Shown here piece after piece: positions 11,473-51,020 of a DNA stretch of 64,000 nt. The notes below the pieces were generated by a model, which was not told the DNA's origin, ran no database searches, and was given only the letters and a program-made list of their open reading frames with translations. A program made the translations under genes and the position numbers. The stretch spans positions 1-64,000 of the forward strand of contig JBDRCO010000108.1 in the NCBI GenBank assembly GCA_043821645.1. The letters are read 5' to 3'. Positions within the stretch are counted from its first letter, which is position 1. Each line of letters begins with the position of its first letter. The DNA comes from Pseudomonadota bacterium (GTDB taxonomy: Bacteria > Myxococcota > JACRCW01 > JAFGSX01).

Positions 11473-11933
11473 CACTTGTGGTAAGGCTCGCCGTGCAGGA
11501 TTGCCTGGGCGCGGTACAGCTGCTCGCACAGGACCAGCAAGGCCAGGCGGTGCGGCAAGGTCATGGGCCCCAGCGACAACAGGGCGTGGCCAGCCTGCAG
11601 CAGTGGGGGGTGCCAGCCCGTGGCACCGCCGATGGCGAAGCACAGGTCCCCTGCCACCAGCCAGCGCTGCAGCTGCCGGGCAAAGGCCTCGCTGCCGTAG
11701 CTACGCCCCGTCGCATCGAGCAACACCAGACGCGCTGTCCGTCGCTCGCGCAGGACGGCCTCGGCCTCGTCGGCGCGGACCCGCGCGTCATCTCCCCCGC
11801 GCCGGCGCCGTGCCGGCTCGACGTGCACGATGTCGATGCGGGCGTGGCGTGCCGCCCGCTGGGCATAATCCTCGGCGACCTGGATCAGGGGATCGCGAGG
11901 CCTGCGACCGACCGCGAGGATGCGAACGGCCAC
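11472..11933 (-). CDS. rlmH: 23S rRNA m3Psi1915 methyltransferase RlmH
   Basis: SPOUT motifs FAIGGATG and LSLGPMTLPH.LA..VL.EQLYRA..IL.GEPYHK; lies next to rsfS. Confidence 0.95.
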   Translation of the reverse strand: MAVRILAVGRRPRDPLIQVAEDYAQRAARHARIDIVHVEPARRRRGGDDARVRADEAEAVLRERRTARLVLLDATGRSYGSEAFARQLQRWLVAGDLCFAIGGATGWHPPLLQAGHALLSLGPMTLPHRLALLVLCEQLYRAQAILHGEPYHK

Positions 11934-11945
11934 GGTGGCGCCGGC

Positions 11946-12311
11946 TCAGGGAGCCGCGGCGGCGCGGACGTCCTCGACCAGCACATGCTTGGCGCCCTGC
12001 CACAGGCCCTCGAGGTCGTAGATGAAGCGCGCCTCGTCGTGAAACAGGTGCGCGACCACCGAGCCGAAGTCGACCAGGGCCCACTGCGAGCCCGTCAGCC
12101 CCTCGCTGCCGAGCGGACGCTCGCCATGTGGTCTCAGCGCGTCCTCGATCGAGGCCGCCAGGGCACGAAGCTGGCGTTCGGAGTGGGCGGTGGCGATGAC
12201 GAAGTAATCCGCGATGCTCGATCGCTCGCCGATGTGCAAGATGACGACGTCCTCGCCCTTTTTCTCAAGAATTGCATTGGCCACCAGGCGGGCCATGTCC
12301 AGCGCGTCGAT
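11946..12311 (-). CDS. rsfS: Ribosome silencing factor RsfS (start probably ATC at 12311; first ATG at 12296)
   Basis: KKGED, ADYFVIATA.S.RQ..AL, EG.....W.LVDFG.VV.H.F....R..YDLE.LW motifs. Confidence 0.95.
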   Translation of the reverse strand: MDALDMARLVANAILEKKGEDVVILHIGERSSIADYFVIATAHSERQLRALAASIEDALRPHGERPLGSEGLTGSQWALVDFGSVVAHLFHDEARFIYDLEGLWQGAKHVLVEDVRAAAAP

Positions 12312-12433
12312 GGGACACCTCCGTCAGGGATAGAACCCAGATCCGAGTATACGCACAGCGCAGGCGGTGCCGACAACCATGGCCGGGAGGCAGGAGACAG
12401 AACCTGGCGTTCGAAGCGTTCCCGGAGGCCGCG

Positions 12434-45627: not shown

Positions 45628-46328
45628 GGCTGTGACTCCACCTGCCGCAGCTCCGGCGTCACAACCGCGGCCGTGGCGACATTCTTGGTGTGCACGCGCC
45701 GCGGCACTGGCGCGATCTCGACGCGGCGGTTGCGTGCACGGTTGTCGTCGCAGGAGTTGGGAACCGCAGGATGTTCCGGGCCAAAGGCCGCTGCGAACAC
45801 CCGCTCCGACGGCAGGCCCATGTCGAGCAGGCTTCGCGCCACGGTGAGGGCACGCTCCGACGACAGCTCCCAGTTGTCCCGATAGCGCCGCTGCATGCTC
45901 AGGTAGGGCAGATCGTCGGTGAAGCCGCTGACCATGATCAGCATCTCGGCATCGCCCTCGAGGTAGCGCGCCAGCGGGCCGGCCACTTCCTCGATCAAAG
46001 CTTCGGCGCCAGGCTGCAGGTCCGCCGAGTTGAGCTCGAACAGGAGTTGCCCGAGGATGCCGATGCGTCCCTCCTCGAGGGTGATGCGCCCCTCGGCCAG
46101 GGGGCGAGCCAGGGCCTGCTCCAGGGCCTCGCGACGCGCCTGTTCGGCGCCGCGAAGATCCTGCTCGCGACGCAGGGACTCGGCGAGATCGAGCTGGAAC
46201 ACCATCGCCCACACGAAGAGCAGCGCGAACAGGCCCAGCAATCCCGCCATGAGATCGCCGAAGAACACCCAGGCCAGGGGCGACTCCATCCGCGATGGGG
46301 AGGTCTGGGCGTCCGGAAGCAAGCTCAT
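45624..46328 (-). CDS. zorB: MotB/OmpA-family protein (ZorB-like)
   Basis: TM segment W..FGDLMAGLL with the conserved Asp; OmpA-like domain GFTDD...NWELSSERA..V...NRARNRRVEI. Confidence 0.75.
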   Translation of the reverse strand: MSLLPDAQTSPSRMESPLAWVFFGDLMAGLLGLFALLFVWAMVFQLDLAESLRREQDLRGAEQARREALEQALARPLAEGRITLEEGRIGILGQLLFELNSADLQPGAEALIEEVAGPLARYLEGDAEMLIMVSGFTDDLPYLSMQRRYRDNWELSSERALTVARSLLDMGLPSERVFAAAFGPEHPAVPNSCDDNRARNRRVEIAPVPRRVHTKNVATAAVVTPELRQVESQP

Positions 46329-48544
46329 GCGTGCTCCTCGCCGCGCAGGGTCTGCAGCTCCGCGAATAGCTCCTGCTGAAACTGCAGCGAATGGTCCACC
46401 GCGTCCCGGGTCTGGTCCAGGTACTCGGCCAGTTGATCCACGCTGGCGTGGCCCAGCTCGCGCAGGGTGCCATCGAGGCGTCCGAGCTGATCGAACCAGC
46501 GCTCGCTGCCCTCACGATAGCGGTCGACGGCCCGCACCAGCAGTTCGGCAGCCAGGGTCAACTCGCCGCCACCGACTCCGAGCAGCAACACCACCTCGTT
46601 CAGCAAACTTGCGAGGCCATCGAGCTCGCGGCGTGGGCCCTCGATGGCGGTGCGCAGCGACTCCGCCAGGCGCATGCCTTCGTCGGAGCGCGCCACGGCC
46701 AGCCGCTCCTCGAGGTCGACCATGGCCGCGTGCTGGCTCGCCACGGCCTGCCCTACCTGGGTGGCCAGCGCGGCCAGGCGCGCACCCTCGACCTCCCGTG
46801 CCGTCGTCAGCCGCTCCTCGAGTTCGACCAGTCCCTGCTGCTGGCTCGCCATGGCCTGCCCCACCTGGGCGGCGAGCGTGGCCAGGTGCTCGTCGGTGTG
46901 CTGGCGCGAACGTTCGAGCTGCTCGGCGCTGCGCGTGGCCAGGGTCGCCAGAGCCTCCGCCTGGCCCCGGGTCGCACTGTCGAGGGCACTGGCAGTCCGG
47001 GCGAAGCTCTGCTGCAGGTCCCCGGCGCGGCCCGACGCCTGAGCGTCCAGCTGCTCGAGGGTCGCGCACATGGCCTCGACCTGGTGCTGCAGCGCCGCAG
47101 CCTGGGCTTCGACGTGGTGTTGCAACGCCGCGGTCTGGGCCTCGCCCTGGGCACGCCACTGGGCCAGGGCCTCGGCCGTGCTCTCGAGCCCACCGCGCAG
47201 CGCCTCGGTCCGGACACGCTCCACCTCGTGCATCCATGCTTGCTGGAGTGCGCGCTGGTCCTCCAGCAGCTGGCCCGTGCGCTCCAGCTGCCCCTCGATG
47301 GCCAGCGCCGCATGCTCGCCCAGGGTCTGCCCCAGAGGAGCCAGCACCTCGCGCAGCGCGATGGCCACGCGTTCGGTGCCCTCGACGATGCGCTGCTGGA
47401 TCTCGGCCGACCCGTCGCGCCAGCTGCGACTCATGTCGTCGTGGAGCGCCGCGGTCGCGGCCTGGAGATCCTGGCCGAGCGTCTGCAAGGTCGTTGCACT
47501 CTGGGCGAGAAGGTCCAGCTGGCGTGCCGAGTCCGCGGCGAGCGTCGAGCTCAGCCCGGCCACGGCATCCTGCAGGGCCGTGCTGCTGTCTCGTGTCGAG
47601 ACACGCTGCTCGTCGCGCAATGTCGTCGAGAGAGCGGCGATGGAGCTCACCAGGGCCTGACCCTGGGTCTGCAACTGCGCGTTGAGCACCTCGCCAGCAC
47701 CCGAGACAGCCGCTGCCTGGGCTTCGAGCTGGGCCTGGTGATTGTCCCGCAGGACCCGATCGAGCTGGCTGAGCTGTGTGGCCTGGGTCTCGAGCTGCTG
47801 CTGCTGCGCCCGCGCCAGGTTGGTCTCGAGTGCCGCCATGCGCTCCACCGCCTGGTTCAGCGCCTCGGCGGCACGCGGCAGGGCCTCGCTGCCCTTCGCC
47901 ATGGCCTCGATGGCGGCGAGCTGGCGTGCATCGGGACCCTGGCTGGCCAGGGGACCTGCGACCCAGCGCTCGAGCTGGAGCTGCAAGAAGCGCTGGCGCC
48001 GCGCGCCGACCACGGCAGCCAGACCCAGGGCGGCAGAACCCGCCACGCCGGCCAGCGATGTGCCGAAGGCGCGGCTGAGCCCACCCAGGGGGCTCAGCAG
48101 GGCGGCGCGCATGGCGTCGATGTCACTGGTCGTGGCCAGGGCCGCGCGGGCTCCCCCCAAGGTCTGCACCAGACCGAGAAAGGTTCCGACCAGACCGAGC
48201 ATGACCAGCAGACCCACCAGATAAGGAGCGAACACCGGTTGAGGCCAGGCCGCGGCGCGGCGGTGCAAGGTCGCCTCCAGCAAGCCCCGGACGGGTGCCG
48301 GTGCCGCGCCGGGACCCTCGCCGACACGGCTCTCGAAGGCGCGAAAGGCCAGGTCCAGACCGTCGAGGGCGGCGGCGACGCGATCCAGCTCCAGCAAGCC
48401 CGCCAGCAGCCCCGCCCCCACCAGAAGCACCAGCACCAGGGCGGTGGTGTCCTCGCCGCGGTAACTCAACGCCACCGGCAGCACCAGTCCCAGACCCAGG
48501 GCCCCCACGAGCCACGTCATCAGGCGTGTCATGTGCGCTCTCAC
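46325..48544 (-). CDS. zorA: MotA/TolQ-like membrane protein with a long cytoplasmic helical tail (ZorA/DUF802-like)
   Basis: PYLVGLLVMLGLVGTFLGLV.TL.GA and PL.GL..AFGTSLAGVAGSA.LGL motifs, followed by about 500 aa of Ala/Gln/Leu-rich helix. Confidence 0.75.
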   Translation of the reverse strand: MRAHMTRLMTWLVGALGLGLVLPVALSYRGEDTTALVLVLLVGAGLLAGLLELDRVAAALDGLDLAFRAFESRVGEGPGAAPAPVRGLLEATLHRRAAAWPQPVFAPYLVGLLVMLGLVGTFLGLVQTLGGARAALATTSDIDAMRAALLSPLGGLSRAFGTSLAGVAGSAALGLAAVVGARRQRFLQLQLERWVAGPLASQGPDARQLAAIEAMAKGSEALPRAAEALNQAVERMAALETNLARAQQQQLETQATQLSQLDRVLRDNHQAQLEAQAAAVSGAGEVLNAQLQTQGQALVSSIAALSTTLRDEQRVSTRDSSTALQDAVAGLSSTLAADSARQLDLLAQSATTLQTLGQDLQAATAALHDDMSRSWRDGSAEIQQRIVEGTERVAIALREVLAPLGQTLGEHAALAIEGQLERTGQLLEDQRALQQAWMHEVERVRTEALRGGLESTAEALAQWRAQGEAQTAALQHHVEAQAAALQHQVEAMCATLEQLDAQASGRAGDLQQSFARTASALDSATRGQAEALATLATRSAEQLERSRQHTDEHLATLAAQVGQAMASQQQGLVELEERLTTAREVEGARLAALATQVGQAVASQHAAMVDLEERLAVARSDEGMRLAESLRTAIEGPRRELDGLASLLNEVVLLLGVGGGELTLAAELLVRAVDRYREGSERWFDQLGRLDGTLRELGHASVDQLAEYLDQTRDAVDHSLQFQQELFAELQTLRGEEHA

Positions 48545-49425
48545 GCGTCGGCGAGGGCCAGCTCGCCGTCCGCTCCGTCGTGATTCATTTTTGTCGTCGG
48601 TTCTGCACTCGCTCGCAGCAGGGCGTCGATGCGCGAGCGCGCCAGGACGAGCATGGTCTGCGCCACCTGCTGCCCGAGCTCGAAGTGCACATGCACCCAG
48701 CCACCTGGCTCGAGGACCACGGCCAGGGCTTCGGGCGAGGACACCGGGCCGGAGCCCAGGGCCAGCTGCAGCCCACGTTCAAAGGCGGCATGGTAGGCCA
48801 CCACCAGGCGCGCTTGCAGGCGCTCGAGGTCGCCGTGTGTCGCCGCCAGCAGAGCCGCATCCAGCCTCTCCAGTCGCACCTGCCGCGGGCCCAGTGTGCG
48901 CAGGGCAGCGCCCAGGGGACGCCGCACGCGGGCCACCTCTCGCGGGATGAGCAGCAGGGCCTGTCGCAGGCGCAGGTCGAAGGGTGCAGCCATGCGATCC
49001 ACCTGGCTGGTGTCCAGGGCACCGCGCGCCGTCAGTACACGATGCAGGCGGAACGGCGACAGCATGCCACCCACACCCGCACCCTGGAGCTGGACCTGCA
49101 GCAGATTGGCCACACCCGCCAGCTCTTCCCGCGCCCTGGCGCGGATGCCCTCGAGGGTCGCGGGCCAGGGCCTCTCGTCCGTCTCCGACGTGGCGGCCGC
49201 TGCCTCCACACCCTCTGGCGACTGCGCTACGCCCGACCGCAGGGCAGCCTCGAGCGCGATACCACCGCGGAAATCGATGAGCGAGGTCAGGAAGACCGCG
49301 GGGTCCACGCCACGCTCCATCCCGAGAGCTTCGCGCTGGCCGGTGGACTGGCCAAGCAGGGCTCCCGCCAGGCGAAGGCGACGCACCACCGTGTCCAGGC
49401 TATCGACAAAGAGATCGAGCTGCAT
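48541..49425 (-). CDS. First gene of the Zorya-like operon (position of DUF3348/ZorF)
   Basis: Translationally coupled to zorA; helical protein ending ...SRIDALLRA. Assignment rests mainly on gene order. Confidence 0.5.
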   Translation of the reverse strand: MQLDLFVDSLDTVVRRLRLAGALLGQSTGQREALGMERGVDPAVFLTSLIDFRGGIALEAALRSGVAQSPEGVEAAAATSETDERPWPATLEGIRARAREELAGVANLLQVQLQGAGVGGMLSPFRLHRVLTARGALDTSQVDRMAAPFDLRLRQALLLIPREVARVRRPLGAALRTLGPRQVRLERLDAALLAATHGDLERLQARLVVAYHAAFERGLQLALGSGPVSSPEALAVVLEPGGWVHVHFELGQQVAQTMLVLARSRIDALLRASAEPTTKMNHDGADGELALADA

Positions 49426-49539
49426 GAGGGGTGCGTGCCTAGCGCCTCTTCACCGGCGTGGCAAGTCGCGAAGACGGTTCCGCGGCAGGGCGCTGATCCT
49501 GGCTTGACGGCGTGCACCCCACGTGACCATCCCTTGTGC

Positions 49540-50703
49540 ATGACAAGCGACCGACAGCACCCGACCACTCCCGCGCACACCACCGCCCAGGCAGCGGGCG
49601 GGAGCTGATGCGCGAGCGCGCCGACCCGGGTGGTCAGGCCACGGCTGGATCAAGCTTTTGTCGACGGTGTGGTCCCCACGGCCGTGGGCCTGGTGCCCCG
49701 CGTCACCTCGCTCCTGAGCAGTGCGGATCGATGGAATGCCACCAAGGTGCGCTGGCGCTTCGGCCGCGACGACTACCGCGTGGATCCCGGCCTGTATGCC
49801 CTCCACCATCCGGATGCCGACGCGCCTGTGCTGGTCACCGCCAACTACAAGCTCAGCTTCGACGCACTGCGTGAGCCGCTGGCCGAGCTCAACGCGTGGA
49901 TCCTCGTGCTCGACACCCGTGGCATCAACGTCTGGTGCGCCGCCGGCAAGGGAAGCTTCTCCACCGACGAGGTGGTGCGCCAGGTCGAGGCGAGCCGCCT
50001 GGCCAGCCTGGTCTCGCACCGCACCCTGGTGCTGCCCCAGCTCGGCGCGCCCGGCGTGGCCGCCCACGAGGTCAAGTCCGGCTGCGGCTTCAAGGTGCGC
50101 TACGGCCCCATCCGCAGCGACGATGTGCCGGCCTTTCTGGCGGCGGGTTCGCGCGCAACGGCGCAGATGCGACGCAAGAGCTTTGACCTGCGCGAGCGGG
50201 TCACCCTGATCCCGGTCGAGCTGGTGGGCGCCTTGCCGGCGGCGGCGGGCGTGCTGATCGGCGCGGTGCTGCTGGCCGCCCTGGTCTGGCCTGGATCCCT
50301 GGCCACCGCGGCCCGGGATCACGGGCTGCCCCTGGCCCTGTCCACGCTGCTCGGATTGATCGGCGGCGCGGTGCTGGTGCCGACGCTGCTGCCCTGGCTG
50401 CCCGGACGCGCCTTCGCCTTCAAGGGGCTGCTCGCGGGTCTGCCGCTGGTGCTGATCCTGGTGGCGCTGCTTCGCCCAGAGCACTGGTCGCTATCGACGG
50501 GGTTGGAGGCCATGGCCTGGGTGGCTTTGACCGCGGCCGTGGCCAGCTACCTGGGCATGATGTTCACGGGTTCGAGCAGTTTCACTTCGCTCTCCGGCGT
50601 GCGGCGGGAAATGCGCCTGGCGGTGCCGCTCCAGCTGGCGGGGCTGGTCGTCGCCGTGGCGACCTGGGTGGGTGCTCGCGTCGTCGCGGGAGGTGGCACG
50701 TGA
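49540..50703 (+). CDS. hgcA: Mercury methylation corrinoid protein HgcA (core 49630-50703; probable N-terminal extension from ATG 49540 with Sec at TGA 49606-49608)
   Basis: Y.V.PGLY, PVLVTANYKLSFD, cap-helix motif GINVWCAAGKG, LPQLGAPGVAAH, GPIR..D, C-terminal TM helices and FTGSS.FTSLSGV..EM. Confidence 0.95.
49620..49639 (+). promoter_or_regulatory. Candidate bacterial SECIS hairpin for hgcA
   Basis: GCC-GACC-CGGGT-GGTC-A-GGC stem-loop with a G-rich loop, starting 11 nt after the in-frame TGA. Confidence 0.5.
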
Positions 50704-51020
50704 GCGCGATGCTGTACCTGCGCGACGTCGTCAGCCTGACGCTGGACCGCGAGCGCTGCACAGGGTGCCGCATGTGCACCCGCGTGTGCCCGCATGCGGT
50801 GTTCACCGTCGACGACGGCAAGGCCCTGATCGTGCAGCGTGATGCCTGCATGGAGTGCGGGGCCTGTGCTCGGAACTGCGAGGCCGGCGCACTTGCCGTG
50901 ACCGCGGGCGTGGGCTGCGCCGCGGCGGTGGTCAACGGACTGCTTGGCCGCTCGGGGGGCGACTGCTGCTGCGTGGTGGACGGTGACGGCAGCCCTCGGA
51001 CCTCGTCAGATTGCTGCTGA
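50700..51020 (+). CDS. hgcB: 2x[4Fe-4S] ferredoxin HgcB
   Basis: CTGCRMCTRVCP and DACMECGACARNC, GVGCAAA, Cys-rich tail (CCC...CC). GTGA overlap with hgcA. Confidence 0.95.
   Translation: MSAMLYLRDVVSLTLDRERCTGCRMCTRVCPHAVFTVDDGKALIVQRDACMECGACARNCEAGALAVTAGVGCAAAVVNGLLGRSGGDCCCVVDGDGSPRTSSDCC

Follow-up and report, generated by a model that had tools for sequence, protein, structure and literature searches.

HgcA makes methylmercury. Haft and Gwadz (2022, bioRxiv 10.1101/2022.07.06.499078) have reported that most HgcAs are selenoproteins with a cysteine-selenocysteine (CU) motif in a missed N-terminal extension, and that the pentapeptide PCUGP is perfectly conserved in 20 published examples. 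A 2026 review lists HgcA as family NF040863 with the motif CU (PMC13188914), and a 2024 PNAS paper states that some HgcA homologues may be selenoproteins (PMC11588087). The locus described here is the hgcA gene in a stretch of 64,000 nucleotides (nt), hereafter the window (C108:1-64000), from a draft genome of 7.07 Mb, 67% GC and 140 contigs. An earlier note on this DNA, made from its letters alone, had proposed that the gene hides a selenocysteine (Sec, U) in an overlooked N-terminal extension, and that this Sec is followed by a cysteine (Cys), in the reverse of the published order. The background on which it drew, the overlooked Cys-Sec extension of many HgcAs, agrees with Haft and Gwadz. 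We consider it very probable (roughly 0.82) that the window hgcA is a selenoprotein gene with a functional Sec codon, whose N-terminal extension adds about 90 nt to the 5' end given by the automatic call. Judged by comparison of sequences, the HgcA selenoprotein family has here a well-supported member whose motif is a rare variant.

The window protein scores 420.4 bits against the NCBIfam model NF040863 (HgcA_corrinoid, cut-off 275), with profile positions 1-324 of 325 matched. It also contains INVWCAAGKG, which corresponds to the cap-helix motif of HgcA, N(V/I)WCA(A/G)GK, with its Cys ligand. Translation confirmed the frame that had been described upstream of the called open reading frame (ORF). 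ATG 49540-42 begins MTSDRQHPTTPAHTTAQAAGGS, TGA 49606-08 and TGC 49609-11 follow, and ASAPTRVVRPRLDQAFV then leads in frame into the called ORF. The residue preceding the proposed Sec is Ser (AGC), the motif is GGS-U-C-ASAP, and the TGC is followed in frame by ASAPTRVVR-PRLDQAFV, so that the predicted Sec-spanning peptide would be QHPTTPAHTTAQAAGGS-U-CASAPTR. As had been expected, gene callers miss the extension; the stored call (P0003, 357 aa, 100% identical) starts at GTG 49630. The locus thus resembles the HgcAs of Haft and Gwadz in family, in the N-terminal extension above the old start, in a single in-frame UGA in the same column, in a hairpin just 3' of that UGA, in a genome with Sec machinery and in a caller-truncated protein.

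The column of the UGA was followed across hgcA loci from related genomes (5 of 61 over the cut-off, the window's own included), genome contigs (80 loci kept) and metagenome contigs (80 loci kept). The cap-helix motif, searched as the regular expression W[CU][ASG][AGS][GAS]K, was present in 166 of 167 loci, and each of these was anchored on the cap Trp and its arm classified. The arm was of the C-U type in 64 of the 166 loci, C-C in 45, a single C in 22, U without an adjacent C in 13 and U-C in 3; it had neither C nor U in 6 and was too short or cut off in 13. The earlier note had suggested looking for U or C at this position in the N-termini of homologues, and both were found there. In 49 of the 64 C-U loci the cap Trp follows U at a distance of exactly 109 residues, with 10 residues from U to P(R)LDQ(P)FV, and the 45 C-C loci have their pair at the same place (for example P0029, AGGCC-PSKEKAPVSL-PRQNQ). 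The window TGA lies at -109 from the cap Trp and 10 residues ahead of PRLDQxFV. Seven of the 13 loci with U only (L041, L057, L073, L078, L124, L138 and L172) are likewise at -109, and the motifs of such Sec-column loci without a flanking Cys include STUGL, RGUSP, SSUAP and SSUTP. The other six are scattered from -99 to -123 and resemble ordinary stops before a start codon. Because 49 of 64 C-U loci have their U at -109 and the stops are scattered, an ordinary upstream TGA at the exact column would be rare and a Sec codon there the rule. In this alignment, the window TGA is positionally homologous to the Sec of the family. PCUGP was found in only 7 of the 64 C-U loci, and the HgcA Sec family is therefore more varied than the published motif.

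The RNA downstream of the column also differs between Sec-type and C-C genes. Among the 74 Sec-type loci (64 C-U, 3 U-C and 7 with Sec but no adjacent Cys), the mean fold of nt 10-42 after the U of the UGA was -10.8 kcal/mol, compared with -6.45 kcal/mol in the 45 C-C loci at an equal GC of 0.61 (Mann-Whitney p = 1.7e-9). A tetraloop closes at nt 22/27 in 49 of the 74, and the tetraloops include AGUU (24), AGGU (17), AGGC (7) and GGCA (5). An alignment (A1) and a covariance model (R1) were built from the 73 other Sec-type loci, with the window site excluded. The 6-bp stem of this alignment has 87.4% of its cells paired as against 79.4% in shuffles; all six pairs show changes on both sides, and none of 500 shuffles matched the observed covariation score. 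Of the 73 loci, 52 have a hairpin that closes at 21-22/27-28, as do 5 of 91 non-Sec loci; such a hairpin reaches -10 kcal/mol or lower in 31 of the 73 and in 4 of the 91. The family stem-loop GGCUC-AGGU-GAGCC encodes a recurrent peptide, (K)AQ(V/L)S(L/P)P (A1 columns 20-35). Since the C-C forms have neither the peptide nor the hairpin, the conservation of this peptide looks imposed by the Sec insertion sequence (SECIS), and in Sec-type genes it may largely be an imprint of the RNA hairpin.

The Cys-Cys HgcAs (L022/G005, L044 and P0029) share with the window the arm, the column and a vicinal pair of soft ligands, but have two Cys, no UGA and no hairpin at the family position. Their frequency (45 of 166 loci), together with the draft state of the 140-contig genome, could suggest that the TGA is an assembly or sequencing error for TGC or TGT and that the window encodes an ordinary Cys-Cys form. 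However, an independent Logan contig of run X1 (791 nt) is identical to 49300-49952 with 0 differences, though X1 is perhaps from the source sample. The hairpin downstream of the window TGA is moreover of a kind seen in Sec forms rather than in C-C forms, and such an error is improbable in the extreme. The contigs of runs X1 to X4 showed no variant within 49540-49640, and no RNA run was listed.

At the window site, the bulged hairpin with a G-rich loop that had been described 11 nt after the TGA is present (Table 1). Its energy is -8.3 kcal/mol in isolation, and the local minimum-energy fold of nt 10-42 is -11.8 kcal/mol. The hairpin closes at 21/27 and has GGU at loop nt 24-26, which are the positions of GGU in the AGGU loop of the family. 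Of the sampled window positions, 1.8% have an equally stable hairpin in that place, and 25 of 18,266 have one that also carries GGU in its loop; the combination of position, stability and GGU loop is found at 2 of the 1,363 TGA triplets of the window. The bacterial SECIS model has a loop of 3-9 nt, an upper stem of 4-16 bp, a G in the first two loop positions, a spacing of 16-37 nt and an energy of -7.5 kcal/mol or lower (PMC13188914, as given in the legend of Fig. 2). Taken alone or in a 33-nt window, the hairpin fits these constraints, with a 5-nt loop, a stem of 4+3 bp, G at loop position 2 followed by G, a spacing of 18 nt and -8.3 kcal/mol. In these respects it resembles the bacterial SECIS elements that are read by SelB, which are likewise stem-loops inside an ORF, and here the binding of SelB is putative. 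The geometry that the earlier note had seen thus stands at the family position, but the evidence for a SECIS is weaker than was implied there, as the scores given below indicate.

These figures also bear on the possibility that 49426-49629 is plain 5' untranslated or intergenic sequence, in which the TGA is the first in-frame stop upstream of GTG 49630 and the TGC and the hairpin are due to chance. GC content alone keeps the frame open over 1.3 kb upstream, local folds of -11.8 kcal/mol or lower occur at 17.6% of sampled window positions, and a generic bacterial-SECIS filter is passed by 124 of the 1,363 window TGAs (9.1%). Such a coincidence, however, needs a TGA at the exact Sec column, and among about 92 non-Sec loci only 6 have an ordinary TGA within -98 to -128, a span of 30 positions. 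A Cys codon would also have to adjoin the TGA, and a hairpin would have to lie where the family has it (as in 5 of 91 non-Sec loci), all in a genome that makes selenoproteins, and we regard such a coincidence as very improbable.

The earlier note had suggested a search for selA, selB, selC and selD, and all four are present in the genome over their cut-offs. The tRNA-Sec has 78.6 bits (gathering score 47) and is called by ARAGORN as tRNA-SeC with anticodon TCA, and selA, selB and selD score 531, 256 and 388 bits. Further genes of the genome carry in-frame TGA codons (Table 1). Among them selD is itself a selenoprotein gene, and the hairpin after its TGA is very stable, GGGCCAGG-GGA-CCUGGCCC, with its loop GGA at nt 24-26. 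The PrxU, OS_HP2-family and UshA-like genes need UGA read as Sec, and their hairpin loops lie about 18-21 nt after the UGA. The loop of the UshA-like gene is GGUCU at nt 22-26 by eye and CUG at 25-27 by the computed fold. The apical loops of all four genes are at the distance of the hgcA loop from the UGA.

Translation most likely begins at ATG 49540, and the other possible in-frame starts are TTG 49504 and TTG 49534. The hgcA frame stays open upstream as far as 48295, on the strand opposite to a real divergent gene (48541-49425) that has +0.36 bits/codon compared with -0.06 for the plus frame. This open frame is no evidence in itself, because a GC content of 67% keeps it open. From about 49540 on, the GC content at third codon positions in the hgcA frame is 0.80-0.87, compared with about 0.67-0.73 before that, and the 22-codon arm has a codon log-likelihood of -1.3, which is the best of the six frames yet not positive. 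The rise and the codon usage of the arm are weak at best as support for an upstream start. In an AlphaFold2 model built on a 13-sequence alignment, with a mean predicted local distance difference test score (pLDDT) of 73, residues 1-28 have pLDDT below 50, the first strands are at 41-47 and 50-55, and long helices at 223-385 fit the C-terminal helical membrane domain of HgcA. The low scores of residues 1-28 would place the Sec-Cys pair on a disordered tail.

Several observations count against a functional Sec codon. The 20 published examples have PCUGP, while the window has S-U-C, with the Cys on the C-terminal side of Sec. Homologues reach at most 57% identity among the 80 loci kept from genome contigs and the 80 from metagenome contigs, and at most 58% beyond the window's own call in a search of 5.8 billion proteins. 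The only same-class relative with hgcA over the cut-off (L021) has neither a C-U nor a C-C motif. As the earlier note had remarked for ATG 49540 and GTG 49630, no Shine-Dalgarno sequence precedes either of them, nor is there one at TTG 49504 or TTG 49534; hgcB, by contrast, has the Shine-Dalgarno GGGAGGTGG. A scan of 49350-49700 for sigma-70 promoters and terminators returned 0 sites, and nothing seen here speaks for or against the leaderless transcript that the earlier note had considered. Codon usage is neutral in the arm (-0.06 bits/codon), compared with +0.45 in the core and -0.50 in intergenic sequence. In contexts of 57 to 66 nt the hairpin, unlike bacterial SECIS elements, gives way to another structure with the loop CACG. 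This other hairpin is also the minimum-energy fold of nt 4-60, and the window site therefore fails the generic SECIS filter. The pair probability of the proposed stem varies from 0.01 to 0.54 with the folding window, and the 65 nt after the TGA have z = +1.32 relative to shuffles, 185 of 200 of which are at least as stable. The stem CCGACC/GGUCAGG is unrelated to the family consensus GGCUC/GAGCC. The covariance model R1 gave 27 matches in the window at E <= 10 and none at 49606, and the site taken alone scores 2.1 bits. A scan of 49500-49720 against Rfam at E <= 10 returned no SECIS family; its four matches, to three microRNA families and one 3' UTR element, are put down to chance.

Many of these points could be read as signs of a relic, in which a lineage that once had a Sec arm now stops at UGA 49606 or starts at GTG 49630 without the arm. 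The hairpin is atypical of the family and is out-competed in longer folds, Ser stands in place of the N-terminal Cys of the C-U pair, ATG 49540 lacks a Shine-Dalgarno and a promoter, and the codon usage of the arm is neutral. HgcAs with neither Cys nor Sec in the arm also exist (6 of 166), and the same-class L021 is without the motif. Neutral decay, however, should break the hairpin rather than leave in place a 7-bp stem of wholly different sequence with a GGU loop, and the chance of such a stem at a random window position is 1.8%, or 0.14% with GGU. A Cys adjoins the UGA on its other side, as in two other genomes. GTG 49630 is also without a Shine-Dalgarno and lies inside the loop and stem of the hairpin. 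The gene stands on a long branch of its own, along which a TGA not under selection would probably have been lost. A relic is thus unlikely, and the Sec-Cys selenoprotein with no Cys before Sec, as proposed in the earlier note, is supported by the column of the UGA, the position of the hairpin and the Sec machinery.

The reversed order is present in the window but is not unique to this genome. It was also found in L099 from a Desulfomonile metagenome-assembled genome (CAZIVV010000191.1; PPT-U-C-SSPESQLRV-PRLDQPFV) and in L101 from Desulfacinum infernum DSM 9756 (NZ_FQVB01000026.1; PGG-U-C-PSSAAQASP-PRLDQPFV). Like the window, both have Cys directly after a Sec that stands in the family column, 10 residues from PRLDQPFV, and their hairpins close at nt 22/27. 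Unlike in the window, these hairpins, with the loops AGGC and AGUU, belong to the family type, and an extra Cys lies 3 to 7 residues upstream of Sec, which the window lacks if the start is ATG 49540. The two proteins are about 49-54% identical to the window HgcA. In D. hydrothermale, a congener of D. infernum, the motif is PRG-U-S (L073), and selA is over the cut-off in all three of these genomes. A FastTree was built from 158 core sequences, 8 of the 166 loci being left out as masked or shorter than 300 residues. The three U-C sequences did not cluster in it, and the window hgcA forms its long isolated branch; the deep nodes of this tree are weakly supported.

The Sec-Cys order is the new element here, and it is a modest variant of the known selenoprotein HgcA. 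The literature searched contained no mention of this order in HgcA; the supplementary alignment of Haft and Gwadz (Fig. S7), possibly with Sec-Cys examples, lay outside that search. The partner Cys stands before Sec in 64 Sec-type loci, after it in 3 and is absent in 7, and from these motifs the Cys partner appears dispensable in some lineages. A bolder and more tentative suggestion, which we hold as a possibility somewhat on the doubtful side, is that Sec is the fixed functional element, tied to the SECIS at one column, and that the partner Cys is movable or dispensable.

The features described above suggest the following course of events. After a start that is most likely at ATG 49540, the ribosome would reach UGA 49606 after 22 codons. 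SelB with Sec-tRNA(Sec) would dock on the hairpin at 49620-49639, the loop CGGGU being 18 nt downstream, and selenocysteine would be inserted. Translation would then continue through Cys24 into the corrinoid domain. In the product, Sec and Cys would form a vicinal pair on a disordered N-terminal arm about 30 residues long, with PRLDQxFV following 10 residues later. We infer that this arm is most likely a soft-metal ligand that captures Hg(II) or swaps it with the C-terminal Cys-Cys of HgcB, and it may offer the metal to the methyl-corrinoid beneath the cap-helix Cys. The Hg-binding site named in the earlier note is putative, here as well as in the canonical C-U form.

Table 1. Features of the hgcA locus in the window and other genes with an in-frame TGA in the same genome.
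Feature	Position	Strand	Remarks
hgcA, proposed full length	49540..50703	+	387 residues with TGA 49606 as Sec; stop TGA 50701-03
hgcA ORF according to gene finders	49630..50703	+	357 aa; start GTG 49630
Likeliest start codon, ATG	49540..49542	+	Only in-frame ATG between the start of the divergent gene (49425) and the TGA
N-terminal arm before Sec	49540..49605	+	22 codons, MTSDRQHPTTPAHTTAQAAGGS; from translation
TGA, proposed Sec (U23)	49606..49608	+	Same column as the Sec of CU-type HgcAs
TGC, C24	49609..49611	+	Directly after Sec; from sequence
SECIS-like hairpin	49620..49639	+	7 bp, bulged A49636, loop CGGGU 49627-31; begins 11 nt after TGA
Hairpin pairs, lower	G49620-C49639, C49621-G49638, C49622-G49637		Followed by bulged A49636
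Hairpin pairs, upper	G49623-C49635, A49624-U49634, C49625-G49633, C49626-G49632		
hgcB, ferredoxin partner	50700..51020	+	NF040864, 114 bits against cut-off 99
Two ORFs (739 aa, 294 aa)	46325-49425	-	Without Pfam match; flank hgcAB
LysM-domain protein, 848 aa	51184-53730	+	Flanks hgcAB
selD	C87:204011-204937 (L018)	-	In-frame TGA, VCGAG-U-ASK
PrxU peroxiredoxin	C112:6848-7780 (L212)	-	NF040737, 370.6 bits against 270; FTFV-U-PTEL; loop GGUC nt 21-24
OS_HP2-family gene	C51:95606-96277 (L217)	+	92.6 bits, below cut-off 100; loop nt 21-26
UshA-like gene	C72:113840-114493 (L225)	-	PCG-U-P; 101.9 bits, below family cut-off 275

The GTG of hgcB overlaps the stop of hgcA. The HgcB protein has GVGC with Cys and not Sec, and its C-terminal end is Cys-Cys. 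No mercury-, arsenic- or selenium-related genes were found among the ORFs flanking hgcAB. No hgcA was found in the sole same-family genome searched (82% complete), and the same-class relative L021 (G002:C38) has an N-terminus, MVVPSGSALSTHFTDG, that differs from that of the window protein; hgcA is therefore patchy in this lineage.

The genome was also scanned for UGA read-through. The scan required 50 open upstream codons, by which selD and hgcA were excluded, and gave 90 candidates, 21 of them with a hairpin. The top 20 were scanned for families. PrxU, OS_HP2 and an IS66 transposase span the TGA, and the others either match no family or consist of neighbouring genes that share a frame. The IS66-family transposase (L216, C138:2363-3475, + strand) matches NF033517 with 281.5 bits over residues 11-348, across an in-frame TGA at codon 181, and is probably a nonsense-disrupted copy. 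Another candidate, at window positions 11475-12323 on the - strand (L205), consists of rsfS and rlmH in one frame with a TGA and a stable hairpin between them; it is an ordinary adjacent pair and was rejected as a read-through false positive.

HgcA as a selenoprotein has already been published, so the gain from this locus is incremental and it is not a new kind of system. Where hgcA surveys or annotation rules look for CU or PCUGP, such genes would come out truncated, like the 357-aa call made here. As published, the selenoprotein form is recognised by its Cys-Sec pair; in the window, in the two other Sec-Cys genomes and in the seven Sec-only loci, the position of Sec is conserved and the flanking Cys is not. 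A fixed Sec with a variable Cys narrows the possible roles of the arm and supplies natural variants that bear on the role of the partner Cys. If the partner Cys is indeed movable or dispensable, the arm would not be an obligate vicinal Cys-Sec chelate or redox pair, and a single selenolate may instead pair in trans with another thiol, for instance the C-terminal Cys-Cys of HgcB or the cap-helix Cys, in the hand-over of Hg(II).

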